Shown one piece after another: positions 1 to 51,920 of a stretch of 64,000 bases of DNA; within the stretch, counting starts at the first letter, position 1, and every line of letters starts with the position of its first letter. The notes below the pieces were generated by a model. That model searched no databases. It saw only the letters and a program-made list of their open reading frames with translations, and was not told the origin of the DNA. Made by a program: the position numbers and the translations under genes. This DNA comes from an uncultured cyanobacterium (lineage in GTDB: Bacteria; Cyanobacteriota; Cyanobacteriia; Cyanobacteriales; CAWUOF01). Where the stretch lies: NCBI GenBank assembly GCA_963744145.1, contig CAVUSO010000001.1:7456001-7520000 (forward strand). Direction: 5' to 3'.

Positions 1-1098
1 TGCTGTTAAGGATCTCTCTTCTTCCCTGTTCATAATTTTTAACATGACTCGAGTAGTTTCTTGATCTGCTTTTTGCCATTTTTTGTCTGATAATAATTGC
101 TCCAGTTTTCTCAAATCAGCTCTAGATGTAACTAAATTAACTTGGGGTGCTGGAGCAAAATTAACTTGGGGTGCTGGAGCAGGTGTAGGAGAAGTAGGTT
201 TTGGAGAAGAGCTAGTAGAATGAGGTATTTTAACATCCCCAACTTGGAGTGATGGAGCAGGTGTAGGAACCGTCATAGCATTTAACACCATTGTTGCTGT
301 CCATCTTTTTTCTCGATCTTTTTCTAATGCTCCCTGGATGATCTCCCGATATCTTTGACTAATTTTTGACCATTCTATGCTCGGTTCTTCCTGAATTACT
401 TTTACCATCAATTGCTGTTCTGTCTCCCCGATAAAGGGCAACTTTCCTGTCAGCATTTCTGCCATGATTACTCCTAATGACCATATATCCCATCCTGTTG
501 CTACTACTCCCTCATAAGCTTCCGGTGGTGCGTATTCACTTGTCCCTTTTCTACTACTTGTCCTTGCTGATTTCCCAGAATTGATTGACCTCATTAACCC
601 AAAATCTGCTAACTTCCAATGCTCCCCAACTTTAATCACATTTGCTGGTTTTACATCCCGATGTACTCGACCCTCTGGTTCTTGATGTAAATAAACTAAT
701 GCAGCACCGATTTCCTTGACGATTTTCTCTACTTCCTCCTCTCCTAATGCCCCTGGCTTTTGCTCTAGAAGTTTTGCTAGTGTTTCTGCTCCTAATTCCA
801 TCACTAAGTACAACATTTCTCCGATTTTAATTTGAGTTAACCCTGGCGCATAACAACGAATTAAATGTAGATGATCTAACTTTACTGCTGCAATTAATTC
901 TTCCAGTTGTTTCTCCCGATTTTTCTGATCTCCTTCGGGTGAAATTAGCTTTACTGCTACTTGACGAATTAGCCGATCGCCTACGACTTCATCGGCACGG
1001 AAAACTGCCCCATATCCGCCCACTCCTAAGAGTTCTTTCAGGTAATATTTTCCGTCAATACATTCTGCCTCTAACAGTCGCCACAATTGTTCATTCAT
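1..1098 (-). CDS. Ser/Thr protein kinase-GUN4-like protein, paralog of 2205-5372; 3' end runs off the window
   Basis: 271-1186 is near-identical to 4545-5460 (offset 4274). The frame from ATG 1098 (MNEQLW...) matches the open paralog through the kinase and a Pro-rich linker into the GUN4 start (LVTSRADLRKLEQLLSDKKWQKADQETTRV). Absent from the ORF track because it has no stop in the window. Confidence 0.88.
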   Translation of the reverse strand, partial: MNEQLWRLLEAECIDGKYYLKELLGVGGYGAVFRADEVVGDRLIRQVAVKLISPEGDQKNREKQLEELIAAVKLDHLHLIRCYAPGLTQIKIGEMLYLVMELGAETLAKLLEQKPGALGEEEVEKIVKEIGAALVYLHQEPEGRVHRDVKPANVIKVGEHWKLADFGLMRSINSGKSARTSSRKGTSEYAPPEAYEGVVATGWDIWSLGVIMAEMLTGKLPFIGETEQQLMVKVIQEEPSIEWSKISQRYREIIQGALEKDREKRWTATMVLNAMTVPTPAPSLQVGDVKIPHSTSSSPKPTSPTPAPAPQVNFAPAPQVNLVTSRADLRKLEQLLSDKKWQKADQETTRVMLKIMNREEERSLTA

Positions 1099-1339
1099 CA
1101 CCTTCAATTCCTGCTTGAACTTGAATAGCAATCACCGTAATATTATCATTACCACCATGTTCTAAAGCTGTTTCTAGACAAGTTTGAGTCAGGTTTTCCA
1201 TTGAGTTTTCCCACTGTTGCACTAAATCTAGTAACTCATCGTCTCTGACTTCACCATGTAATCCATCGCTATATAATATTAAAACATCTCTACCAAGATA
1301 ATTCCGATAACTTTTTATGTTCATCCCATTTTGGATCAA
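1091..1339 (-). pseudogene. C-terminal fragment of a PP2C/PPM family protein phosphatase
   Basis: ILYSDGL and GGNDNITV metal-binding motifs are present; the N-terminal half is missing. Its stop overlaps the kinase ATG (ATGAATGA). Confidence 0.8.
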
Positions 1340-1983: not shown

Positions 1984-2230
1984 GCGATCGCTTGCCGATC
2001 AATCGGGTGTAGGGGCGAAGCATTCGGGCGATAATTTATCACTAAAAACCGTTAATATTATATCCGAATGCTTCGCCCTTCTTCTTCTGTGCCAGCTCCC
2101 CAAAAATATCATAGTTTAAGCAACTAATGAAATGCTGCAAACCTCATTCCTACGTCATCCAATTTTTCTGAAAAATATTCTTGATCTTTTAGAAAAGCTA
2201 TATGTTAGAGTCTAGAGAAGAGAAAAGAGA
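1984..2230. repeat. 3' flank shared by both gene-terminal GUN4 cassettes (about equal to 42938-43181), including one GTAG REP hairpin
   Basis: About 245 bp similar overall; 2100-2230 differs from 43051-43181 at only a few positions. Confidence 0.9.
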
Positions 2231-4490
2231 TTCCCCAAACACCACCCCACACCCACAGAACCCCCCCGACAGCCCGCCCCTCCCACACTGGGAGGTGTCC
2301 CATAGGAGCAGAGATATTAAAAGTGAAGTTAGAGTAGCTGCTCAACCAGTTTCCTCCTTTTCTCCAGCCGACTTCATCTCCTAATTTAACATAAGTATCG
2401 GAATCATAACTATCTAGCTTCCCACCCAATTTGAGCCAGATTTTCTTCTGGACTGAAAACCCAAATTTGTCGTTAGAATACTTTAACCACAACTGGTCAA
2501 TCATCCGCAGTTCATTTTTCGGAAAATTACGACAGTTATCTGCTGTTAACCATCCCTCTTTTTCCCTGTTCATAATTTTACACATAACTCGAACAGTTTC
2601 TTGATCTGCTTCTTGCCATTTTTTGTCTAATAATAATTGATCAAGTTTCCTCAAATCAGCTCTAGATGTAACTAAATTTTCTTGGGGTGATGGAGCAGGT
2701 GTAGGAGAAGTAGGTTTTGGAGGAGAGCTAGTAGAATGAGGTATTTTAACATCCCCAACTTGGGGTGATAGAGCAGGTGTAGGAACCATGTTAGAGTCTA
2801 GAGAAGAGAAAAGAGACAATCCAAACCCCCACCCAACCCACACCCCCAAACCAAACACACCACCAGCCGGGAGGTGTCCCGCAGGAGCAGAGATATTAAA
2901 AGTGAAGTTAGAGTAGCTGCTCAACCAGTTTCCTCCTTTTCTCCAGCCGACTTCATCTCCTATTTTAACATAAGTATCGTAATCATAATCTAGCTTCCCA
3001 CCCAATTTGAGCCAGATTTTCTTCTGGACTGAAAACCCAAATTTGTCATTAGAATACTTTAACCACAACTGGTCAATCATCCGCAGTTCATTTTTCGGAA
3101 AATTACGACAGTCATCTGGTGTTAACCATCTCTCTTTTTCCCTGTTCATAATTTTACACATAACTCGAGCAGTTTCTTGATCTGCTTCTTGCCATTTTTT
3201 GTCTGATAATAATTGATCAAGTTTCCTCAAATCAGCTCTAGATGTAACTAAATTTTCTTGGGGTGATGGAGCAAAATTAACTTGGGGTGATGGAGCAGGT
3301 GTAGGAGAAGTAGGTTTTGGAGAAGAGCTAGTAGAATGAGGTATTTTAACATCCCCAACTTGGGGTGATGGAGCAGGTGTAGGAACCATGTTAGAGTCTA
3401 GAGAAGAGAAAAGAAGACAATGACCATTCAGTTCTCCCACCAAAAATCCCCCACCCCCACCCCCAGGTAAGTGACCTAGGGGAGCATAGATATTAAAAGT
3501 GAGGTCAGAGTAGTTTAACCAGTTTCCTCCTTTTCTCCAACCGACTTCATCCCCTAATTTAACATAAGTATCGGAATCATAACTATCTAGCTTCCCACCC
3601 AATTTGAGCCAGATTTTCTTCTGGACTGAAAACCCAAATTTGTCATTAGAATACTTTAACCACAACTGGTCAATCATCCGCAGTTCATTTTTCGGAAAAT
3701 TACGACAGTTATCTGCTGTTAACCATCCCTCTTTTTCCCTGTTCATAATTTTACACATAACTCGATTAGTTTCTTGATCTGCTTCTTGCCATTTTTTGTC
3801 TGATAATAATTGATCAAGTTTCCTCAAATCAGCTCTAGATGTAACTAAATTTTCTTGGGGTGATGGAGCAAAATTAACTTGGGGTGATGGAGCAGGTGTA
3901 GGAGAAGTAGGTTTTGGAGGAGAGCTAGTAGAATGAGGTATTTTAACATCCCCAACTTGGGGTGATGGAGCAGGTGTAGGAACCATATTAGAGTCTAGAG
4001 AAGATAAAAGAGACCCATCCCCCAAACCCACCCACCAACACCCCACCACAACCCAACCAAATAACGGGAGGTGTCCCCTACGAGCAGAGATATTAAAAGT
4101 GAGGTCAGAGTAGTTCAACCAGCTTCCTCCTTTTCTCCAGCCGACTTCATCCCCTAATTTAACATAAGTATTTGAATCATAACTATCTAACTTCCCACCC
4201 AATTTGAGCCAGATTTTCTTCTGGACTGAAAACCCAAATTTGTCATTAGAATACTTTAACCACAACTGGTCAATCATCCGCAGTTCATTTTTCGGAAAAT
4301 TACGACAGTTATCTTCTGTTAAGTATCCCTCTTTTTCCCTGGTCATAACTTTCAACATGACTTGAGTAGTTTCTTGATCTGCTTCTTGCCATTTTTTGTC
4401 TGATAATAATTGATCAAGTTTCCTCAAATCAGCTCTAGATGTAACTAAATTTTCTTGGGGTGATGGAGCAAAATTAACTTGGGGTGATGG
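2202..4490. repeat. Four tandem intragenic units of about 586-600 bp (linker + GUN4 + variable segment + constant tail)
   Basis: The tail ATGTTAGAGTCTAGAGAAGAGAAAAGA recurs at 2202, 2788 and 3388, and with two substitutions at 3985. Confidence 0.95.
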
Positions 4491-5372
4491 AGGAGGTGTA
4501 AGAGAAATAGGTTTTGGATGAGAGCTAATCGGAGCAGGTGTTTTCGTCATAGCATTTAACACCATTGTTGCTGTCCATCTTTTTTCTCGATCTTTTTCTA
4601 ATGCTCCCTGGATGATCTCCCGATATCTTTGACTAATTTTTGACCATTCTATGCTCGGTTCTTCCTGAATTACTTTTACCATCAATTGCTGTTCTGTCTC
4701 CCCGATAAAGGGCAACTTTCCTGTCAGCATTTCTGCCATGATTACTCCTAATGACCATATATCCCATCCTGTTGCTACTACTCCCTCATAAGCTTCCGGT
4801 GGCGCGTATTCACTTGTCCCTTTTCTACTACTTGTCCTTGCTGATTTCCCAGAATTGATTGACCTCATTAACCCAAAATCTGCTAACTTCCAATACTCCC
4901 CAACTTTAATCACATTTGCTGGTTTTACATCCCGATGTACTTGACCCTCTGGTTCTTGATGTAAATAAACTAATGCAGCACCGATTTCCTTGACGATTTT
5001 CTCTACTTCCTCCTCTCCTAATGCCCCTGGCTTTTGCTCTAGAAGTTTTGCTAGTGTTTCTGCTCCTAATTCCATCACTAAGTACAACATTTCTCCGATT
5101 TTAATTTGAGTTAACCCTGGCGCATAACAACGAATTAAATGTGGATGATCTAACTTTACTGCTGCAATTAATTCTTCCAGTTGTTTCTCCCGATTTTTCT
5201 GATCTCCTTCGGGTGAAATTAGCTTTACTGCTACTTGACGAATTAGCCGATCGCCTACGACTTCATCGGCACGGAAAACTGCCCCATATCCGCCCACTCC
5301 TAAGAGTTCTTTCAGGTAATATTTTCCGTCAATACATTCTGCCTCTAACAGTCGCCACAATTGTTCATTCAT
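2205..5372 (-). CDS. Ser/Thr protein kinase with four tandem GUN4-like domains, each ending in a hypervariable segment
   Basis: Kinase motifs GVGGYG, VAVK, HRDVKPAN, DFG and YAPPE. Four repeats of W.EADQET...IDQLW..YS..KFGFSVQK.IW...VGWR....W...GHLP. Likely start is ATG 5372 (ORF track starts at TTG 5405). Confidence 0.95.
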   Translation of the reverse strand: MNEQLWRLLEAECIDGKYYLKELLGVGGYGAVFRADEVVGDRLIRQVAVKLISPEGDQKNREKQLEELIAAVKLDHPHLIRCYAPGLTQIKIGEMLYLVMELGAETLAKLLEQKPGALGEEEVEKIVKEIGAALVYLHQEPEGQVHRDVKPANVIKVGEYWKLADFGLMRSINSGKSARTSSRKGTSEYAPPEAYEGVVATGWDIWSLGVIMAEMLTGKLPFIGETEQQLMVKVIQEEPSIEWSKISQRYREIIQGALEKDREKRWTATMVLNAMTKTPAPISSHPKPISLTPPPSPQVNFAPSPQENLVTSRADLRKLDQLLSDKKWQEADQETTQVMLKVMTREKEGYLTEDNCRNFPKNELRMIDQLWLKYSNDKFGFSVQKKIWLKLGGKLDSYDSNTYVKLGDEVGWRKGGSWLNYSDLTFNISARRGHLPLFGWVVVGCWWVGLGDGSLLSSLDSNMVPTPAPSPQVGDVKIPHSTSSPPKPTSPTPAPSPQVNFAPSPQENLVTSRADLRKLDQLLSDKKWQEADQETNRVMCKIMNREKEGWLTADNCRNFPKNELRMIDQLWLKYSNDKFGFSVQKKIWLKLGGKLDSYDSDTYVKLGDEVGWRKGGNWLNYSDLTFNIYAPLGHLPGGGGGGFLVGELNGHCLLFSSLDSNMVPTPAPSPQVGDVKIPHSTSSSPKPTSPTPAPSPQVNFAPSPQENLVTSRADLRKLDQLLSDKKWQEADQETARVMCKIMNREKERWLTPDDCRNFPKNELRMIDQLWLKYSNDKFGFSVQKKIWLKLGGKLDYDYDTYVKIGDEVGWRKGGNWLSSYSNFTFNISAPAGHLPAGGVFGLGVWVGWGFGLSLFSSLDSNMVPTPALSPQVGDVKIPHSTSSPPKPTSPTPAPSPQENLVTSRADLRKLDQLLLDKKWQEADQETVRVMCKIMNREKEGWLTADNCRNFPKNELRMIDQLWLKYSNDKFGFSVQKKIWLKLGGKLDSYDSDTYVKLGDEVGWRKGGNWLSSYSNFTFNISAPMGHLPVWEGRAVGGVLWVWGGVWGISFLFSRL

Positions 5373-5689
5373 CACCTTCAATTCCTGCTTGAACTTGAAT
5401 AGCAATCACCGTAATATTATCATTACCACCATGTTCTAAAGCTGTTTCTAGACAAGTTTGGCTCATATTTTTTAAGCGGTTCTGAAGGTAAGAGCTGATT
5501 TAATAATTCTCGAAAAGTATTAATGGCAATTTCTGATGCTCTTTTTCTTCCCTTACGTCCCTCCATTCCATCCGCAACTACTGCTAGTAAAGCAGATTGA
5601 GCTGACCAGAATTCTAACAAATGATTGTCTTCATTGACTGGACGAACTTTACCCGTATCAGTTTTAGAATTGTAGATTAGTTGTCTCAT
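5365..5689 (-). pseudogene. PP2C/PPM phosphatase with a large internal deletion
   Basis: The N-terminus (TDTGKVRPVNEDN...AVVADGMEG) is joined out of frame at about 5460 to the last ~30 codons, which match 1091-1186. Confidence 0.8.
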
Positions 5690-5928
5690 ATTAGAATTTG
5701 CTCGATTACATATTTTCACCTATCTTCATGCGATTCTGCAAGAACATTTTTGTTCCACAACCCTGACAAAACTTAGATTGAGGGGAGTTTTCCTAGGGAC
5801 AATTAGGGTTAAGACATTTAATAAGGTTACTCATAATTTTGGAAACCTGATGTGCTAAGATCAATTAGGTAATCCGATCATATCAGAAAAATTAATGGTG
5901 TTGCTGATGATCGGCAGACACCTCGAAT

Positions 5929-41378: not shown

Positions 41379-41509
41379 TCTGATCAGGCTGATGATTCTA
41401 CCAGAACAATTGTTGGACTAGGGCTGTTTCATGCTCGATCCTCACCTGTGATCGACCTAACCCCCCAACCCCCTTCCCTGCGAGGGCAGGGGGAGTAATT
41501 AAGTTAAGT

Positions 41510-43057
41510 GTAGGGGTGAAGCATTCGGGCGACAATTGAACAATCAAACCAGTAATATTATACCCGAATGCTTCGCCCTTCTTCTGTGCCGAGAGTTCCC
41601 AAAAAATTCTGAACTGAATGTATTATATATCTAGTTGATCTGTTGGTTGCATAGATGGCAGGGCAAAGCATTTCGGTCATATTATTCTTCCCTTCGACTA
41701 CGCTCAGGGTAAACGCTTCAGCAATTATTTATGCGCCGAAATGCTTTGCCCCTACGAGGAACTGAACTGGATTGGTATTTAATCAGCGATCGCTTGTAGA
41801 TCAATCGGGTGTAGGGGCGAAGCATTCGGGCGATAATTTACCGCTTAAACCAGCAATATTATATCCGAATGCTTCGCCCCTCTTCTGCGCCGAGCTCCCC
41901 AAAAATTCTTAACTGAATGTATTGTAATATCTAGTTGATCTGTTGGTTGCATAGATGGCAGGGCAAAGCATTTCGGTAATATTATTCTTCCCTTCGACTA
42001 CGCTCAGGGTAAACGCTTCAGCAATCATTTATGCGCCGAAATGCTTTGCCCCTACGAGGAACTGAACTGGATTGGTATTTAATCAGCGATCGCTTGCCGA
42101 TCAATCGGATGTAGGGGCGAAGCATTCGGGCGATAATTTACCGCTTAAACCAGCAATATTATATCCGAATGCTTCGCCCCTCTTCTGCGCCGAGCTCCCC
42201 AAAAATTCTTAACTGAATGTATTGTAATATCTAGTTGATCTGTTGGTTGCATAGATGGCAGGGCAAAGCATTTCGGTAATATTATTCTTCCCTTCGACTA
42301 CGCTCAGGGTAAACGCTTCAGCAATCATTTATGCGCCGAAATGCTTTGCCCCTACGAGGAACTGAACTGGATTGGTATTTAATCAGCGATCGCTTGCCGA
42401 TCAATGGGGTGTAGGGGCGAAGCATTCGGGCGATAATTGAACAATCAAACCAGCAATATTAGATCCGAATGCTTCGCCCTTCTTCTGCGCCGAGCTCCCC
42501 AAAAATTCTGAACTGAATGGATTGTAATATCTAGTTGATCTGTTGGCTACATAGATGGCAGGGCAAAGCATTTCGGTAATATTATTCTTCGTTTCAGCAA
42601 TCATTTATGCGCCGAAATGCTTGCCCCTACGAGGAACTGAACTGGATTGGTATTTAATCAGCGATCGCTTGCCGATCAATGGGGCGTAGGGGCGAAGCAT
42701 TCGGGCGACAATTGAACAATCAAACCAGCAATATTATACCCGAATGCTTCGCCCTTCTTCTGCGCCGAAATCCCCAAAAATTCTTAACTGAATGTATTAT
42801 AATATCTAGTTAATCTGTTGGTTGCATAGATAGCGAGGGCAAAGCATTTCGGTAATATTATTCTTCGCTTCAGCAATTATTTATGCGCCGAAATGCTTTG
42901 CCCCTACAAAGAACTGAACTGGATTGGTATTTAATCAGCGATCGCTTGCCGATCAATCGGGCGTAGGGGCGAAGCATTCGGGCGACAATTGAACAATCAA
43001 ACCAGCAATATTATATCCGAATGCTTCGCCCTTCTTCTGCGCCGAGCTCCCCAAAAA
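41510..43057. repeat. Tandem array of 5 full and 1 partial REPIN/BIME-like units (275-301 bp)
   Basis: GTAGGGG starts at 41510, 41811, 42111, 42411, 42686 and 42963. Each full unit has two oppositely oriented GTAG hairpins, and the first three carry a ~25 bp CCTTCGACTACGCTCAGGGTAAAC insert. Confidence 0.95.
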
Positions 43058-43162
43058 TATCATAGTTTAAGCAACTAATGAAATGCTGCAAACCTCATTC
43101 CTACGTCATCCAATTTTTCTGAAAAATATTGTTGATCTTTTAAAAAAGCTATATGTTAGAGT

Positions 43163-45907
43163 CTAGAGAAGAGAAAAGAGACAACCACTAGAGTCGGCAC
43201 CACCGGCCCACCACCCATCCCACAACACCCACACACACGGGAGGTGTCCCACCGGAGCCGATATCTTAAAAGTGAGGTCAGAGTAGCTCAACCAGCTTCC
43301 TCCTTTTCTCCAACCGACTTCATTTGCTAGTTTAACATAAGTATCGGAATCATAACTACAATCTAGCTTACCACCCAATTTGAGCCAGATTTTCTTCTGG
43401 ACTGAAAACCCAAATTTGTCATTAGAATGCTTTAACCACAACTGGTCAATGATCCGCAGTTCATTTTTCGGAAAATTACGACAATTATCTTTTGTTAACC
43501 ATTCCTCTTTTTCCCTGTTCATAATTTTTAACATGACTCGACCAGTTTCTTGATCTGCTTCTTTCCATTTTTTGTCTGATAACAATTGATCCAGTTTCCT
43601 CAAATCAGCTCTAGATGTAACTAAATTAACTTGGGGTGGTGGAGAAATTGGGGTAGGGATTTGAGGAGGTTCAACAACTATTTTTGCTTGTTCTTGACGA
43701 ATCCCGTCAATTTTATCGGCAACATCATCCCGCTTTTCAATTATGCTAGTAATCCCAAGACCGATCGCTTGATTATAATCTTGGACAGCCTGTTCATATT
43801 GTGCTAAAGCAGTATTAAGATCGTTTATACTTGAAGCACGGTTACCAAGCTGATTATAAGCATCTCCTCGATACCGAAAAGCCTCGGCATAATTAGGCTG
43901 AAGTTCTAGAGTGCAAGTAAAATCAGGAATAGCTTGATCTGGTTGTTTCAACTTCAGATAGGCTAAACCGCGCTGATAGTGACCCCGAATAGATTGAGCA
44001 TCTAGTTGAATAACTTGATCAAAATCTGTAATTGCTAGATTATATTGGGATGCTTGCATTCTCCTCATCCCTCGCTCAAAACAAGCATCAACTATACTAA
44101 AATGGTCTTCTCCTAAAGCTGTCAAACATTGATTCAGTTGATCCACATACCCCAGGTCAGCAGGAATAACTACAGATGCTATTACTGTTAATAACACTTT
44201 AGTTAATTCCACCTGATTGTTTAAGTTATCTTCCTTCAGTAAAACATCTTCAGGAATCAAGCTAGCATCGCGCAATTCTAGCCAAGATATAAGGGCGTAA
44301 TTAATTTGCCCTCTTGCCCAAAATTTATCATCTAAATGCGTTAAATTTAGGGCAAAATCTAAGGCTAAATTTGGCACCCGATAGGGATTAATCAACTTGA
44401 TAGTTTGATAGATACCGCGATAGATGAAAAAAATGATATTGATGATTTCATTTTTCAAATTAGTATCATCAATTTTTGCTAATAAATCTGGTAAAAGCGT
44501 CGGCAATAGCGGCATAACATCATAATGATAAAGATGATACTGATCTGCTGCTAAACCTGCTAAAATACAATGAACATTACCCAAAAATTCTGCTAATTCT
44601 TGGATATATTCATCTTCATTAACCCGATAATCACGCCGTCTATTTCTACCTTGTTGCTGATCTCTTTTTTCCGCTTCTAAAACCTTTAAATTTTCCTCAT
44701 CATCGCCCCCTTCTTCTGCGATTTCTTTAGGGGTTTTACCTTCATCCATTAGTTGAATTCTAGTTTCTCGCCAAAGACGGGCATTTTCTCGCGCTAATGG
44801 ATAAAGCAGATCTTTCCAGGGAATAGATAGGATTCTTTTGTAGCGATAGTGAATGTCCATACTATCCCAACTGGCGATATAGATATTAATAAAATCCCCA
44901 TCAACCTTCGATTCTAAAATTAGAGTAGGGATCGATTGATGAGTATAGTACAAATTTTCCATCGCTCCTTCAGAATGCAACCTTTTACTATCCCAAACTC
45001 CCCCTAAAAATTTAGTTGGTCTGATGCTACTTTCTACAGGATAATGATGAGAATCTTGCAAAAACTCACGCAATTTATCTGTTAATGCTGTTTCAATTTT
45101 AGCAAGCCCTTGTCCAGCATGAGAAAATTTCTCAAATTCAACTGCGGGAGGTGAAATAATCACTAATAAAGGTACTGGTTTACTAGCATCAAATTTTCTG
45201 TAAATATTGAGAGTGGGAACAGAATTAGAAATCAAGGGATGATTATTGAGAATGCGTTGATATTCCGCTGACATCATCATGTTTTGTAACTGAATAGATG
45301 CCTGAATAAACATCGTTTCGCGGTCATATTTTCTTAAATTCCATTCATGTTCCTGCCGCGCTTGTATTAATTGTTGTTCAAAATCTTGCCTTTGCTGCAA
45401 CCGGATATTTTCCCATTCTTGTCGGAATCTTTCGATTTTCTGTTGATTTTCGTGGCTCAAATTAGCCAATTGAATTGCTTCATCATGCTTGCGTCTTGCT
45501 TCTTCATAAGTAAATTGTTGATTGTCTTTTTGCAAATCATATTGATTTATCCATTGCACTTGTAATTCTTCCATTCTAAATTCTTGCCGCCGAGTTTCCA
45601 TGAGGGCGCTAAATTCGTGGCGGTCTTGCTGTAAATGCCAATCTGCTACTATTCTATTGTTAGTGTTTTGTCGGTTAGATTCGATAGTATCTAAAGTGTT
45701 TTTTCTGGAAACTAATCTTCCTGCTTCCATCTGAAAATTCGCATTAATCTGTTTGTCAGTATTGATAAGGTTAGCGGTAGCTGTGGCAGTTTGGGGCATA
45801 TAAAGCATCATTCCTGTAGCTATACCATTAGCTAAATCTTTTGCTCCATTCCAAATGTTACCAGCAACAGTTGTGATGCTATTCCAACAGTATTTCAGTA
45901 TGTTCAT
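43163..45907 (-). CDS. Multidomain protein: coiled coil, unknown globular domain, TPR repeats and a C-terminal GUN4-like domain with a hypervariable end
   Basis: Q/E/R-rich heptads and TPRs (AITDFDQVIQLD, AIPDFTCTLELQPNYAEA). The GUN4 domain is nearly identical to those at 2205-4450. Confidence 0.88.
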   Translation of the reverse strand: MNILKYCWNSITTVAGNIWNGAKDLANGIATGMMLYMPQTATATANLINTDKQINANFQMEAGRLVSRKNTLDTIESNRQNTNNRIVADWHLQQDRHEFSALMETRRQEFRMEELQVQWINQYDLQKDNQQFTYEEARRKHDEAIQLANLSHENQQKIERFRQEWENIRLQQRQDFEQQLIQARQEHEWNLRKYDRETMFIQASIQLQNMMMSAEYQRILNNHPLISNSVPTLNIYRKFDASKPVPLLVIISPPAVEFEKFSHAGQGLAKIETALTDKLREFLQDSHHYPVESSIRPTKFLGGVWDSKRLHSEGAMENLYYTHQSIPTLILESKVDGDFINIYIASWDSMDIHYRYKRILSIPWKDLLYPLARENARLWRETRIQLMDEGKTPKEIAEEGGDDEENLKVLEAEKRDQQQGRNRRRDYRVNEDEYIQELAEFLGNVHCILAGLAADQYHLYHYDVMPLLPTLLPDLLAKIDDTNLKNEIINIIFFIYRGIYQTIKLINPYRVPNLALDFALNLTHLDDKFWARGQINYALISWLELRDASLIPEDVLLKEDNLNNQVELTKVLLTVIASVVIPADLGYVDQLNQCLTALGEDHFSIVDACFERGMRRMQASQYNLAITDFDQVIQLDAQSIRGHYQRGLAYLKLKQPDQAIPDFTCTLELQPNYAEAFRYRGDAYNQLGNRASSINDLNTALAQYEQAVQDYNQAIGLGITSIIEKRDDVADKIDGIRQEQAKIVVEPPQIPTPISPPPQVNLVTSRADLRKLDQLLSDKKWKEADQETGRVMLKIMNREKEEWLTKDNCRNFPKNELRIIDQLWLKHSNDKFGFSVQKKIWLKLGGKLDCSYDSDTYVKLANEVGWRKGGSWLSYSDLTFKISAPVGHLPCVWVLWDGWWAGGADSSGCLFSLL

Positions 45908-51851: not shown

Positions 51852-51920
51852 AGAAACCGCCCGAACGTCAAATCGGGCGGAGTGTGGTGTGAGGAGTGAA
51901 CGGAAACATGCGTCTCCGCT
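51852..51920 (-). ncRNA. yfr1: Yfr1 small RNA
   Basis: The conserved ACTCCTCACAC (51897-51887) lies between a 5' hairpin (GCGGA...TTCCG) and a terminator (CCGCCCGA...TCGGGCGG-TTT), at the known position between guaB and trxA. Confidence 0.9.

Follow-up and report, generated by a model that had tools for sequence, protein, structure and literature searches.

How can near-identical copies of one protein domain each end in a sequence of their own? The question is raised by a stretch of 64,000 nucleotides (nt) from an uncultured cyanobacterium (GenBank assembly GCA_963744145.1, contig CAVUSO010000001.1, positions 7,456,001 to 7,520,000), here called the window, which lies in a genome of 7.7 Mb with 39.4% G+C and 30% A. 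The window encodes five complete GUN4-like domains, four of them in tandem in a Ser/Thr protein kinase, and each ends in the conserved residues GHLP, a variable segment that we call the cassette, and a constant tail. In nearly every paralog a unique G/T tract without stop codons takes the place of the ligand-binding part of true GUN4, and the tail that comes after it is fit for use in any of the three reading frames. To account for this we favour, at a probability of about 50%, a combination of a G/T tract prone to indels, conversion between paralogous copies and selection for difference.

Cassettes at the Ends of GUN4-Like Domains

The kinase gene (2205..5405, minus strand) is an open reading frame (ORF) of 1066 aa whose product matches Pkinase (2.1e-45) and GUN4 (PF05419, 1.1e-164, in four stretches) in Pfam. 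Each of its GUN4-like domains ends in GHLP, cassette and tail, and the linkers between them are rich in Pro, Thr and Ser. The fifth domain, also found with Pfam, is the single C-terminal GUN4-like domain of a TPR protein of 914 aa (43163..45907, minus strand). The cassettes are all encoded on the minus strand, those of kinase domains 1 to 4 at 4014..4065, 3417..3465, 2817..2868 and 2231..2289, respectively, and that of the TPR protein at 43182..43238. Their sharp 5' border is formed by the GHLP codons, which lie on the same strand at 2289..2300 in domain 4, where they match the Pro208 region of Synechocystis GUN4, and at 2867-2878 in domain 3. The original prediction had located the cassettes correctly, but its 3' limits take in one or two bases of the Pro codon, base 2289 being the third base of that codon. 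On the other side of the cassette stands the constant, pyrimidine-rich tail element, which follows the last cassette of the kinase at 2202..2230 (minus strand) and has further copies at 2788-2816, 3388-3417, 3985-4013 and 43153-43181.

On the coding (minus) strand the five window cassettes contain 151 G, 88 T, 17 A and 13 C in 269 nt, which reproduces exactly the 239 G/T and 17 A counted before. The cassette of domain 4 has 36 G, 15 T, 4 A and 4 C, and those of domains 1 and 3 are each G/T at 50 of 52 positions. Canonical G-quadruplex (G4) motifs are present in four of the five, among them the cassettes of domains 1, 3 and 4. At the scale of the genome, GUN4 ends make up 0.47% of the sequence and hold 11 of the 62 G/T-rich 40-mers, 10 of the 82 canonical G4 motifs and 7 of the 135 G runs of at least 7 (the longest at these ends reach 7-8); the G4 motifs and G runs are all on the coding strand. 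This concentration is far from chance.

We compared flanks and cassettes among the eight closest genomic copies (28 pairs). Identity is 91-98% over the 250 nt 5' of the cassette and 78-100% over the 23 nt 3' of it, and for four dispersed copies conservation extends through about 100 nt of non-coding DNA past the stop. When forced into alignment, the cassettes of the same pairs are 35-64% identical, which by our estimate is about the level expected of two mostly G/T sequences. Semi-global alignment against shuffles leaves no residual similarity between cassettes: z is 1.97 at best and averages 0.46, and it is 0.07 for the pair whose flanks are 98% identical. The picture of near-identical GUN4 copies around segments that differ as if by chance is thus confirmed, and the identity and shuffle comparisons, together with the codon tests below, bear out the description of the segments as hypervariable, variable in length (33-159 nt), unalignable and biased at the nucleotide level. 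A blastn-short search of the whole genome found no second copy of any of 11 close-family cassettes.

The cassettes had also been described as not simple repeats. They are indeed mostly aperiodic, but at a low threshold Tandem Repeats Finder reports weak short periodicities in four of the five, all below its default score of 50, including a perfect 6-nt unit repeated three times in the cassette of domain 2 (3448-3465); the cassette of domain 1 has a weak periodicity of 11-13 nt. Repeated 7-mers inside cassettes number 53 vs 37.9 +/- 7.7, a weak excess that 23 of 500 shuffles reached.

An assembly artefact is an unlikely source of the cassettes, because the 1066-aa frame is intact across four of them and many independent assemblies show this anatomy too. 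A search of public sequencing data listed a single run with the stretch, possibly the source sample and containing half of the sampled words, and no RNA run. In its short contigs, which break at the repeats, no alternative bases were listed at the cassettes that were covered, several bins being uncovered.

Position of the Cassette in the GUN4 Fold

Sequence homology to the solved GUN4 chains stops one residue past GHLP, and the G/V/W-rich cassette comes next. In Synechocystis GUN4, according to the passages of PMC1084334 that deal with this region, Pro208 and Leu210 anchor the alpha6/alpha7 loop in a hydrophobic palm and are followed by Arg214, which is essential for porphyrin binding, and Arg217. 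The alignment to GUN4 chains finds neither of these arginines, needed for porphyrin binding, after GHLP; the cassette stands in their place.

We obtained an AlphaFold model of domain 4 from a 53-row alignment, with a predicted local distance difference test score (pLDDT) of 88.4. Cassette residues 135-144 score below 50; residues 146-155, in the tail, are modelled as a helix, and over the block 151-157 the mean pLDDT is 93. Superposed with VIA-align on Synechocystis GUN4 (4XKB), the model gives Z 21.0 and a root-mean-square deviation of 1.5 A over 138 residues, with model residues 2-157 matched to residues 87-228 of the GUN4 chain. The domain thus belongs to PF05419 both by its profile match and by its GUN4 core fold. 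From the end of the homology and the match of the model we therefore infer that the cassette replaces the ligand-contacting end of the alpha6/alpha7 loop and that the tail takes the place of the last GUN4 helices. True GUN4 (Sll0558; PDB 1Y6I, 4XKB) shares the fold and the homology up to GHLP, but has the Arg214/Arg217 stretch where the GUN4-like domains have a variable cassette.

Occurrence Across the GUN4-Like Family

Fusions of GUN4-like domains with kinases, caspases, TIR and vWA proteins occur in multicellular cyanobacteria, and the domains are thought to be sensors in the parts of PMC7159879 that concern them. Using tblastn and Pfam we found about 50 GUN4 matches in this genome, of which a single one is true GUN4 (C1:1114726-1115145), and 1-20 in each of 30 related genomes. 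A clear succession of GHLP, loop and tail is seen in 36 of 47 GUN4 domain ends of this genome, where ten ends without a recognisable tail, true GUN4 included, and one without the motif were dropped. The same layout is found in 53 of 60 loci fetched from other cyanobacterial genomes, five of the rest lacking the motif and two having been dropped for tail length. In multi-domain proteins of other species, too, each domain has a different loop. The genome-wide search for further cassettes that had been proposed therefore shows the variable loop between GHLP and tail to be a feature of the whole GUN4-like family. Here and in all family statistics below, paralogs and related genomes are not independent samples.

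No close strain is present among the 30 related genomes, where the best match is 79% over 450 nt, and the nearest non-self protein among the matches listed is 74% identical over 30% of the query. In other species, 14 of the 15 listed members of one 90% protein cluster have an identical loop and one differs by a single residue, and in Planktothrix and Sphaerospermopsis clusters the loops differ by point changes only. In the Aphanizomenon/Dolichospermum clusters, differing alleles are 92-99% identical in their N-terminal part and 57-84% in the GUN4 body.

Kinases of Dolichospermum and Aphanizomenon (P0003, P0008, P0150, P0153) in 90% clusters also differ by whole GUN4 units, for example with lengths of 554, 803 and 1147 aa, so that the number of GUN4 domains varies among close strains. 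P0150 compared with P0003 looks like a deletion with its junction inside two cassettes.

A G/T Bias at the DNA Level

In this genome, the base at the third codon position is G in 35%, T in 38%, A in 17% and C in 10% of loop codons, against 16% G, 36% T, 33% A and 15% C in the domain bodies. The choice among synonymous codons is shifted accordingly: GGG accounts for 73 of the 185 Gly codons of the loops vs 53 of 417 in bodies (chi-square p 1e-14), and GTG 46 of 106 Val codons vs 42 of 240 (chi-square p 6e-8). Other genomes show the same shift more weakly, with third-position G at 28% vs 20% and A at 21% vs 30%. The bias acts at the DNA level, beyond the peptide alone.

The bias is also unevenly spread among loops. 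Loop G+T correlates with identity to the nearest paralog (Spearman rho 0.63, n=36 non-independent copies), and all 12 loops with G+T of at least 0.85 are unique to one genome. Third-position G+T is 0.73 in 79 unique loops and 0.55 in 10 loops conserved between genomes (Mann-Whitney p 0.001), with the bodies at 0.53. G/T purity thus tracks uniqueness to one genome and the presence of close paralogs, as if the purest loops were of recent origin. Because old loops have ordinary third-position composition, no standing constraint on loop composition is visible at the DNA level.

A Tail That Is Read in Three Frames

In the window family one tail DNA has three readings: SLFSSLDSNM, which runs into the linker and the next domain; ISFLFSRL, followed by a stop; and CLFSLL, followed by a stop. 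All are in use. The cassettes of domains 1 and 2 lead into the read-through frame, as does that of domain 3, where SLFSSLDSNM continues into the linker; the cassette of domain 4 leads into ISFLFSRL and its stop, and that of the TPR protein into CLFSLL and its stop, the third frame. The element has a stop in two of its three frames, and the remaining frame stops in the terminal copies and runs on in the internal ones. In the purest cassettes three frames are open throughout, each finishing in one of the three natural tails. This is so in domain 4, where every frame reaches a natural-type tail, and in domain 3, whose two other frames finish in ...LFSLL and ...SFLFSRL, each with a stop; the cassette of domain 1 likewise has three open frames. 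A second recent family (C1:1.29-1.30 Mb and 5.58 Mb) has a single element that is read as SSLASRLVDCNI, LFSRVETCRL or SLLSRRDL, with one stop per frame inside about 20 nt; this is the ancestral form of the tail.

For a wider count we used 101 domain ends from this and other genomes and canonical tail types that are motif definitions made for this analysis. A canonical tail is found in 43 of the 101 ends, and the three frames are used 17, 14 and 12 times. In 18 of these 43 the DNA encodes another canonical type in an overlapping frame, and in five it encodes all three, while in the control by synonymous recoding such overlaps number 0.05 on average and 2 at most. The three types fit one DNA consensus, which is recognisable past the stop in several short-frame genes. 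Conservation at third positions of the tail is 0.68-0.79, with little or no fall from positions 1 and 2; in the most conserved block of the body the values at positions 1, 2 and 3 are 0.85, 0.89 and 0.64. Within this genome the element occurs solely at the 3' ends of GUN4, which account for 10 of 10, 4 of 4 and 7 of 7 pattern matches, the last set being the version found in the window family. Three usable metagenome loci of Aphanizomenon/Dolichospermum (L125/L126, L127 and L128) have conserved downstream DNA and different cassettes; all three tail frames are used among them, and two share the next gene.

A tract that lacks A is free of stop codons however it is read, and Gly, Val, Trp, Cys, Phe and Leu are the only residues that it encodes. 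As the tract is stop-free and the tail offers a usable C-terminal helix in three frames, the length of the cassette is therefore free to change by any number of nucleotides. A change of frame alters the product, since translation through cassette and tail leads, depending on the frame, to a distinct natural-type C-terminus or to read-through. For the four-domain kinase this determines if the protein stops behind a given domain or goes on to include the following one. The conservation of the tail in three frames can come from frequent frame switching, from gene conversion between paralogs across frames or from a cis-acting role of the DNA. The three-frame tail is a new finding of the present analysis, and we found no description of it or of the cassette in the full-text literature searched, which leaves most subscription journals outside.

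A hairpin in the tail was considered and rejected: the 5-bp inverted repeat seen in the consensus is, by eye, not kept across the aligned tails. On the opposite strand, the antisense of each tail starts with ATG (window 2202-2384, plus strand, and in the same phase at 2788, 3388 and 43153). The short antisense ORF (MLESREEKR...), read in two copies, has a middle part rich in Pro, Thr, Asn and His that corresponds to the complement of the cassette. This ORF is probably a by-product of composition.

Reverse Transcriptases and the Question of a Dedicated Enzyme

The A-poor cassette, lying in the C-terminal ligand-binding part of signalling proteins, brings to mind the diversity-generating retroelements (DGRs), in which a reverse transcriptase (RT) carries out mutagenic retrohoming from a template repeat. 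Passages of PMC7517822 report that cyanobacterial DGRs target kinase-fused proteins and list GUN4-like among the less common domains of variable proteins. A DGR-type RT does exist in this genome (C1:5012149-5012883), but it is a remnant, a 275-aa open frame that ends soon after the catalytic Asp-Asp motif. Its relatives are intact (353-389 aa, 65-76% identical) in 10 of the 30 other related genomes, and an eleventh has a broken copy. The repeats adjacent to the remnant lie in upstream non-coding DNA, look like dispersed repeats and do not form a pair of template and variable repeats. No template repeat was found for the cassettes either: the best non-self matches in the whole genome (blastn-short, 11 cassettes) are at most 25 nt long and of a GGT-type repeat. 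A search of 31 related genomes with one DGR-type RT query (E <= 1e-15) gave no match in 18, and loops of 87-93% G/T are present in four of these. The original prediction was right that the segments are unlike DGR variable regions in having neither a fixed length nor an alignable non-A scaffold, and no pair of them beats shuffles. It had also suggested a DGR-like or otherwise templated route, which is not sustained, as neither a duplicate nor an A-rich counterpart of any cassette was found in the genome. With no template copy, a truncated RT and G/T-rich loops in genomes where no such RT was found, we reject the classical DGR as an explanation and see hardly any chance of its being right.

Two other RT loci complete the set of three in this genome: a 331-aa RT directly followed by Cas1 (CRISPR-associated RT; C1:5090354-5093974) and a 493-aa Drt5 defence RT (C1:3188812-3192273, PADLOC E 8e-202). 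A template or an RT co-occurring with the cassettes had been anticipated. No A-rich counterpart of a cassette was found in the genome, and co-occurrence with RTs is uninformative, because RVT_1 is found in 29 of the 31 related genomes.

These enzymes bear on a broader idea, which we judge unlikely, of a site-specific writer. Such an activity would cut or prime the DNA between GHLP and the tail and refill it by G/T-biased untemplated or short-template synthesis (C/A on the other strand), using the tail as a cis site and exerting no length control modulo 3; the three-frame tail would be an adaptation that accommodates inserts of any length. Borders that are sharp to the nucleotide, aperiodic and quasi-random G/T interiors without residual similarity, and near-equal use of the three frames (17, 14, 12) would be natural products of it. 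The loops found in a single genome are the purest in G/T, as if born so, whereas alleles in populations of other species are stable. The DNA of the tail is conserved beyond the needs of any one frame, also downstream of short-frame stops and at GUN4 ends only, as a cis site might be, but three-frame coding and gene conversion among paralogs already account for that conservation. Lastly, the genome has the Drt5 RT and the Cas1-adjacent RT, and parts of the literature report template-independent RT-like polymerases, yet none of the GUN4 loci has an enzyme or template linked to it, and the wide distribution of RVT_1 says nothing either way. If true, a writer would be a bacterial counterpart of the junctional diversification of immune receptors.

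Possible Origin of the Cassettes

In the explanation that we favour, the cassette would be a low-complexity tract of G and T that mutates readily and lies in a loop free of structural constraint. New cassettes would come from ordinary errors of replication and repair, that is, slippage in G runs and short G/T motifs and G-to-T changes, and additionally from deletions at microhomologies and from the fusion of one copy with another. Conversion among the approximately 50 paralogs would keep the flanks alike up to the heterologous cassette, and selection would maintain the difference between cassettes. With frequent re-framing, each of the three codon positions would come under selection for Gly, Val, Trp, Phe, Leu and Cys. 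The probable result is a set of kinase, caspase, TPR and other proteins with GUN4-like sensors that differ in the lid of the ligand pocket.

Several observations agree with this explanation. Of the 780 pairs of informative sites in the flanks, 304 do not pass the four-gamete test; the flanks therefore recombine, and gene conversion can keep them alike and so give sharp borders. The cassettes contain slip-prone sequence, with G runs, G4 motifs, weak internal repeats and a few tandem units, and the apparent deletion in P0150 is a further sign of instability. Ordinary slippage, conversion and selection explain most of the features described here.

Other observations weigh against it. Copies with 98% identical flanks share only the composition of their cassettes, so that no stepwise path of slippage is visible between them. 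Most cassettes are aperiodic, and the modest excess of repeats is driven by few of them. In other species the alleles are discrete and stable, with the identical loops in 14 of 15 members and the point changes mentioned above, and the pattern in Aphanizomenon/Dolichospermum points to swaps of whole 3' halves over turnover of the cassette. In addition, C is depleted about as much as A, which avoidance of stop codons leaves unexplained.

The strong recombination of the flanks (304 of 780 site pairs) also invites a doubtful alternative, that the cassettes are old and not especially mutable, and that the copies look recent as concerted evolution homogenises their flanks. Conversion tracts ending at heterology would yield the sharp borders, and the stable alleles of other species, with some swaps at the level of domains, would be expected; conversion across a cassette should, however, copy it, and none of the 11 cassettes tested is duplicated. 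Composition would be held by selection on both peptide and nucleic acid (G-quadruplex formation, frame robustness), and the canonical G4 motifs in four of the five window cassettes would fit; yet the loops known to be old, those conserved across genomes, are ordinary at third positions (0.55). The use of different frames inside recent families is a further difficulty for old cassettes.

Two more specific proposals were dropped. A purine/pyrimidine skeleton kept by deamination fails on the unequal lengths of the cassettes and their lack of alignment, and an inverted Pro/Thr linker was discarded as a source of cassettes, as the complement of the linker is A-rich and the cassettes are not.

If frames do switch often, the locus would be one shaped for length change, with a rare frameshift-tolerant coding that is conserved across the sampled genomes of the order, and it would provide cheap diversity in both sensor specificity and domain number.

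Other Features of the Locus

The inter-domain linkers vary too, by unit number. A 24-nt unit (PSPQVNFA-type repeats) in the Pro/Ser-rich linker is seen at window 3241-3297 and 3838-3894, with about two copies in some inter-domain linkers and none in the last one.

A neighbouring paralogous kinase gene (1..1131, minus strand) is 94% identical at the nt level to the kinase part of the 2205..5405 gene, and its GUN4-like domain and cassette run past the left end of the window. Short ORFs lie upstream of both kinase genes (window 1091-1339 and 5423-5719, minus strand), and look like C- and N-terminal pieces of what we take to be a PP2C-type phosphatase, possibly as split genes.

Downstream of the gene for the 914-aa protein, and adjoining it, is a tandem array (window 41508-43058) with a unit of about 300 nt in 3.6-4.7 copies and 93-95% matches. 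Its pieces are hairpin-forming dispersed repeats with HIP1 (GCGATCGC), and lone pieces lie downstream of other GUN4 copies, for example at window 1990-2100; several related genomes match the first ~100 nt of a repeat query from window 2000-2100. The only Rfam match in the window is the cyanobacterial small RNA Yfr1 (51855-51919, minus strand; RF01116, 61.5 bits vs a gathering score of 38), with none at the GUN4 cassette locus.

Comparison with Known Systems

The GUN4 cassettes give an experimental handle on the choice between contingency-type loci and a new diversification enzyme in cyanobacteria, and can be set beside three known systems. The pilE/pilS system of Neisseria achieves antigenic variation by gene conversion and has a G-quadruplex-forming sequence at the locus. 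The GUN4 cassettes resemble it in combining gene conversion among related copies with G4-forming sequence, and differ in that none of the 11 cassettes tested has a silent donor and that the G4 motif lies inside the variable part.

As in DGRs, the diversified segment belongs to cyanobacterial signalling proteins, binds the ligand and lies close to the C-terminus. The effector domains of cyanobacterial vWA-MoxR conflict systems include GUN4 and the DGR-linked FGS/C-type-lectin domain in the portion of PMC7159879 that describes them. Unlike DGRs, the cassettes are found without a template repeat, an intact RT, a fixed length or a conserved scaffold.

The contingency loci of Neisseria, Haemophilus, Helicobacter and Bordetella are slippage-prone tracts in genes, which vary in phase through their length. 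Like them, the GUN4 cassette is a G-rich tract inside a gene, where a change in length shifts the frame and alters the C-terminus or the parts downstream, and like them the locus looks shaped for mutability. Contingency loci consist of clean repeats, whereas the GUN4 cassettes are mostly aperiodic G/T sequence with weak short periodicities. And where contingency loci switch a gene on or off, the GUN4 cassettes, with three open frames that lead into usable conserved tails, may switch between alternative forms of the same protein.

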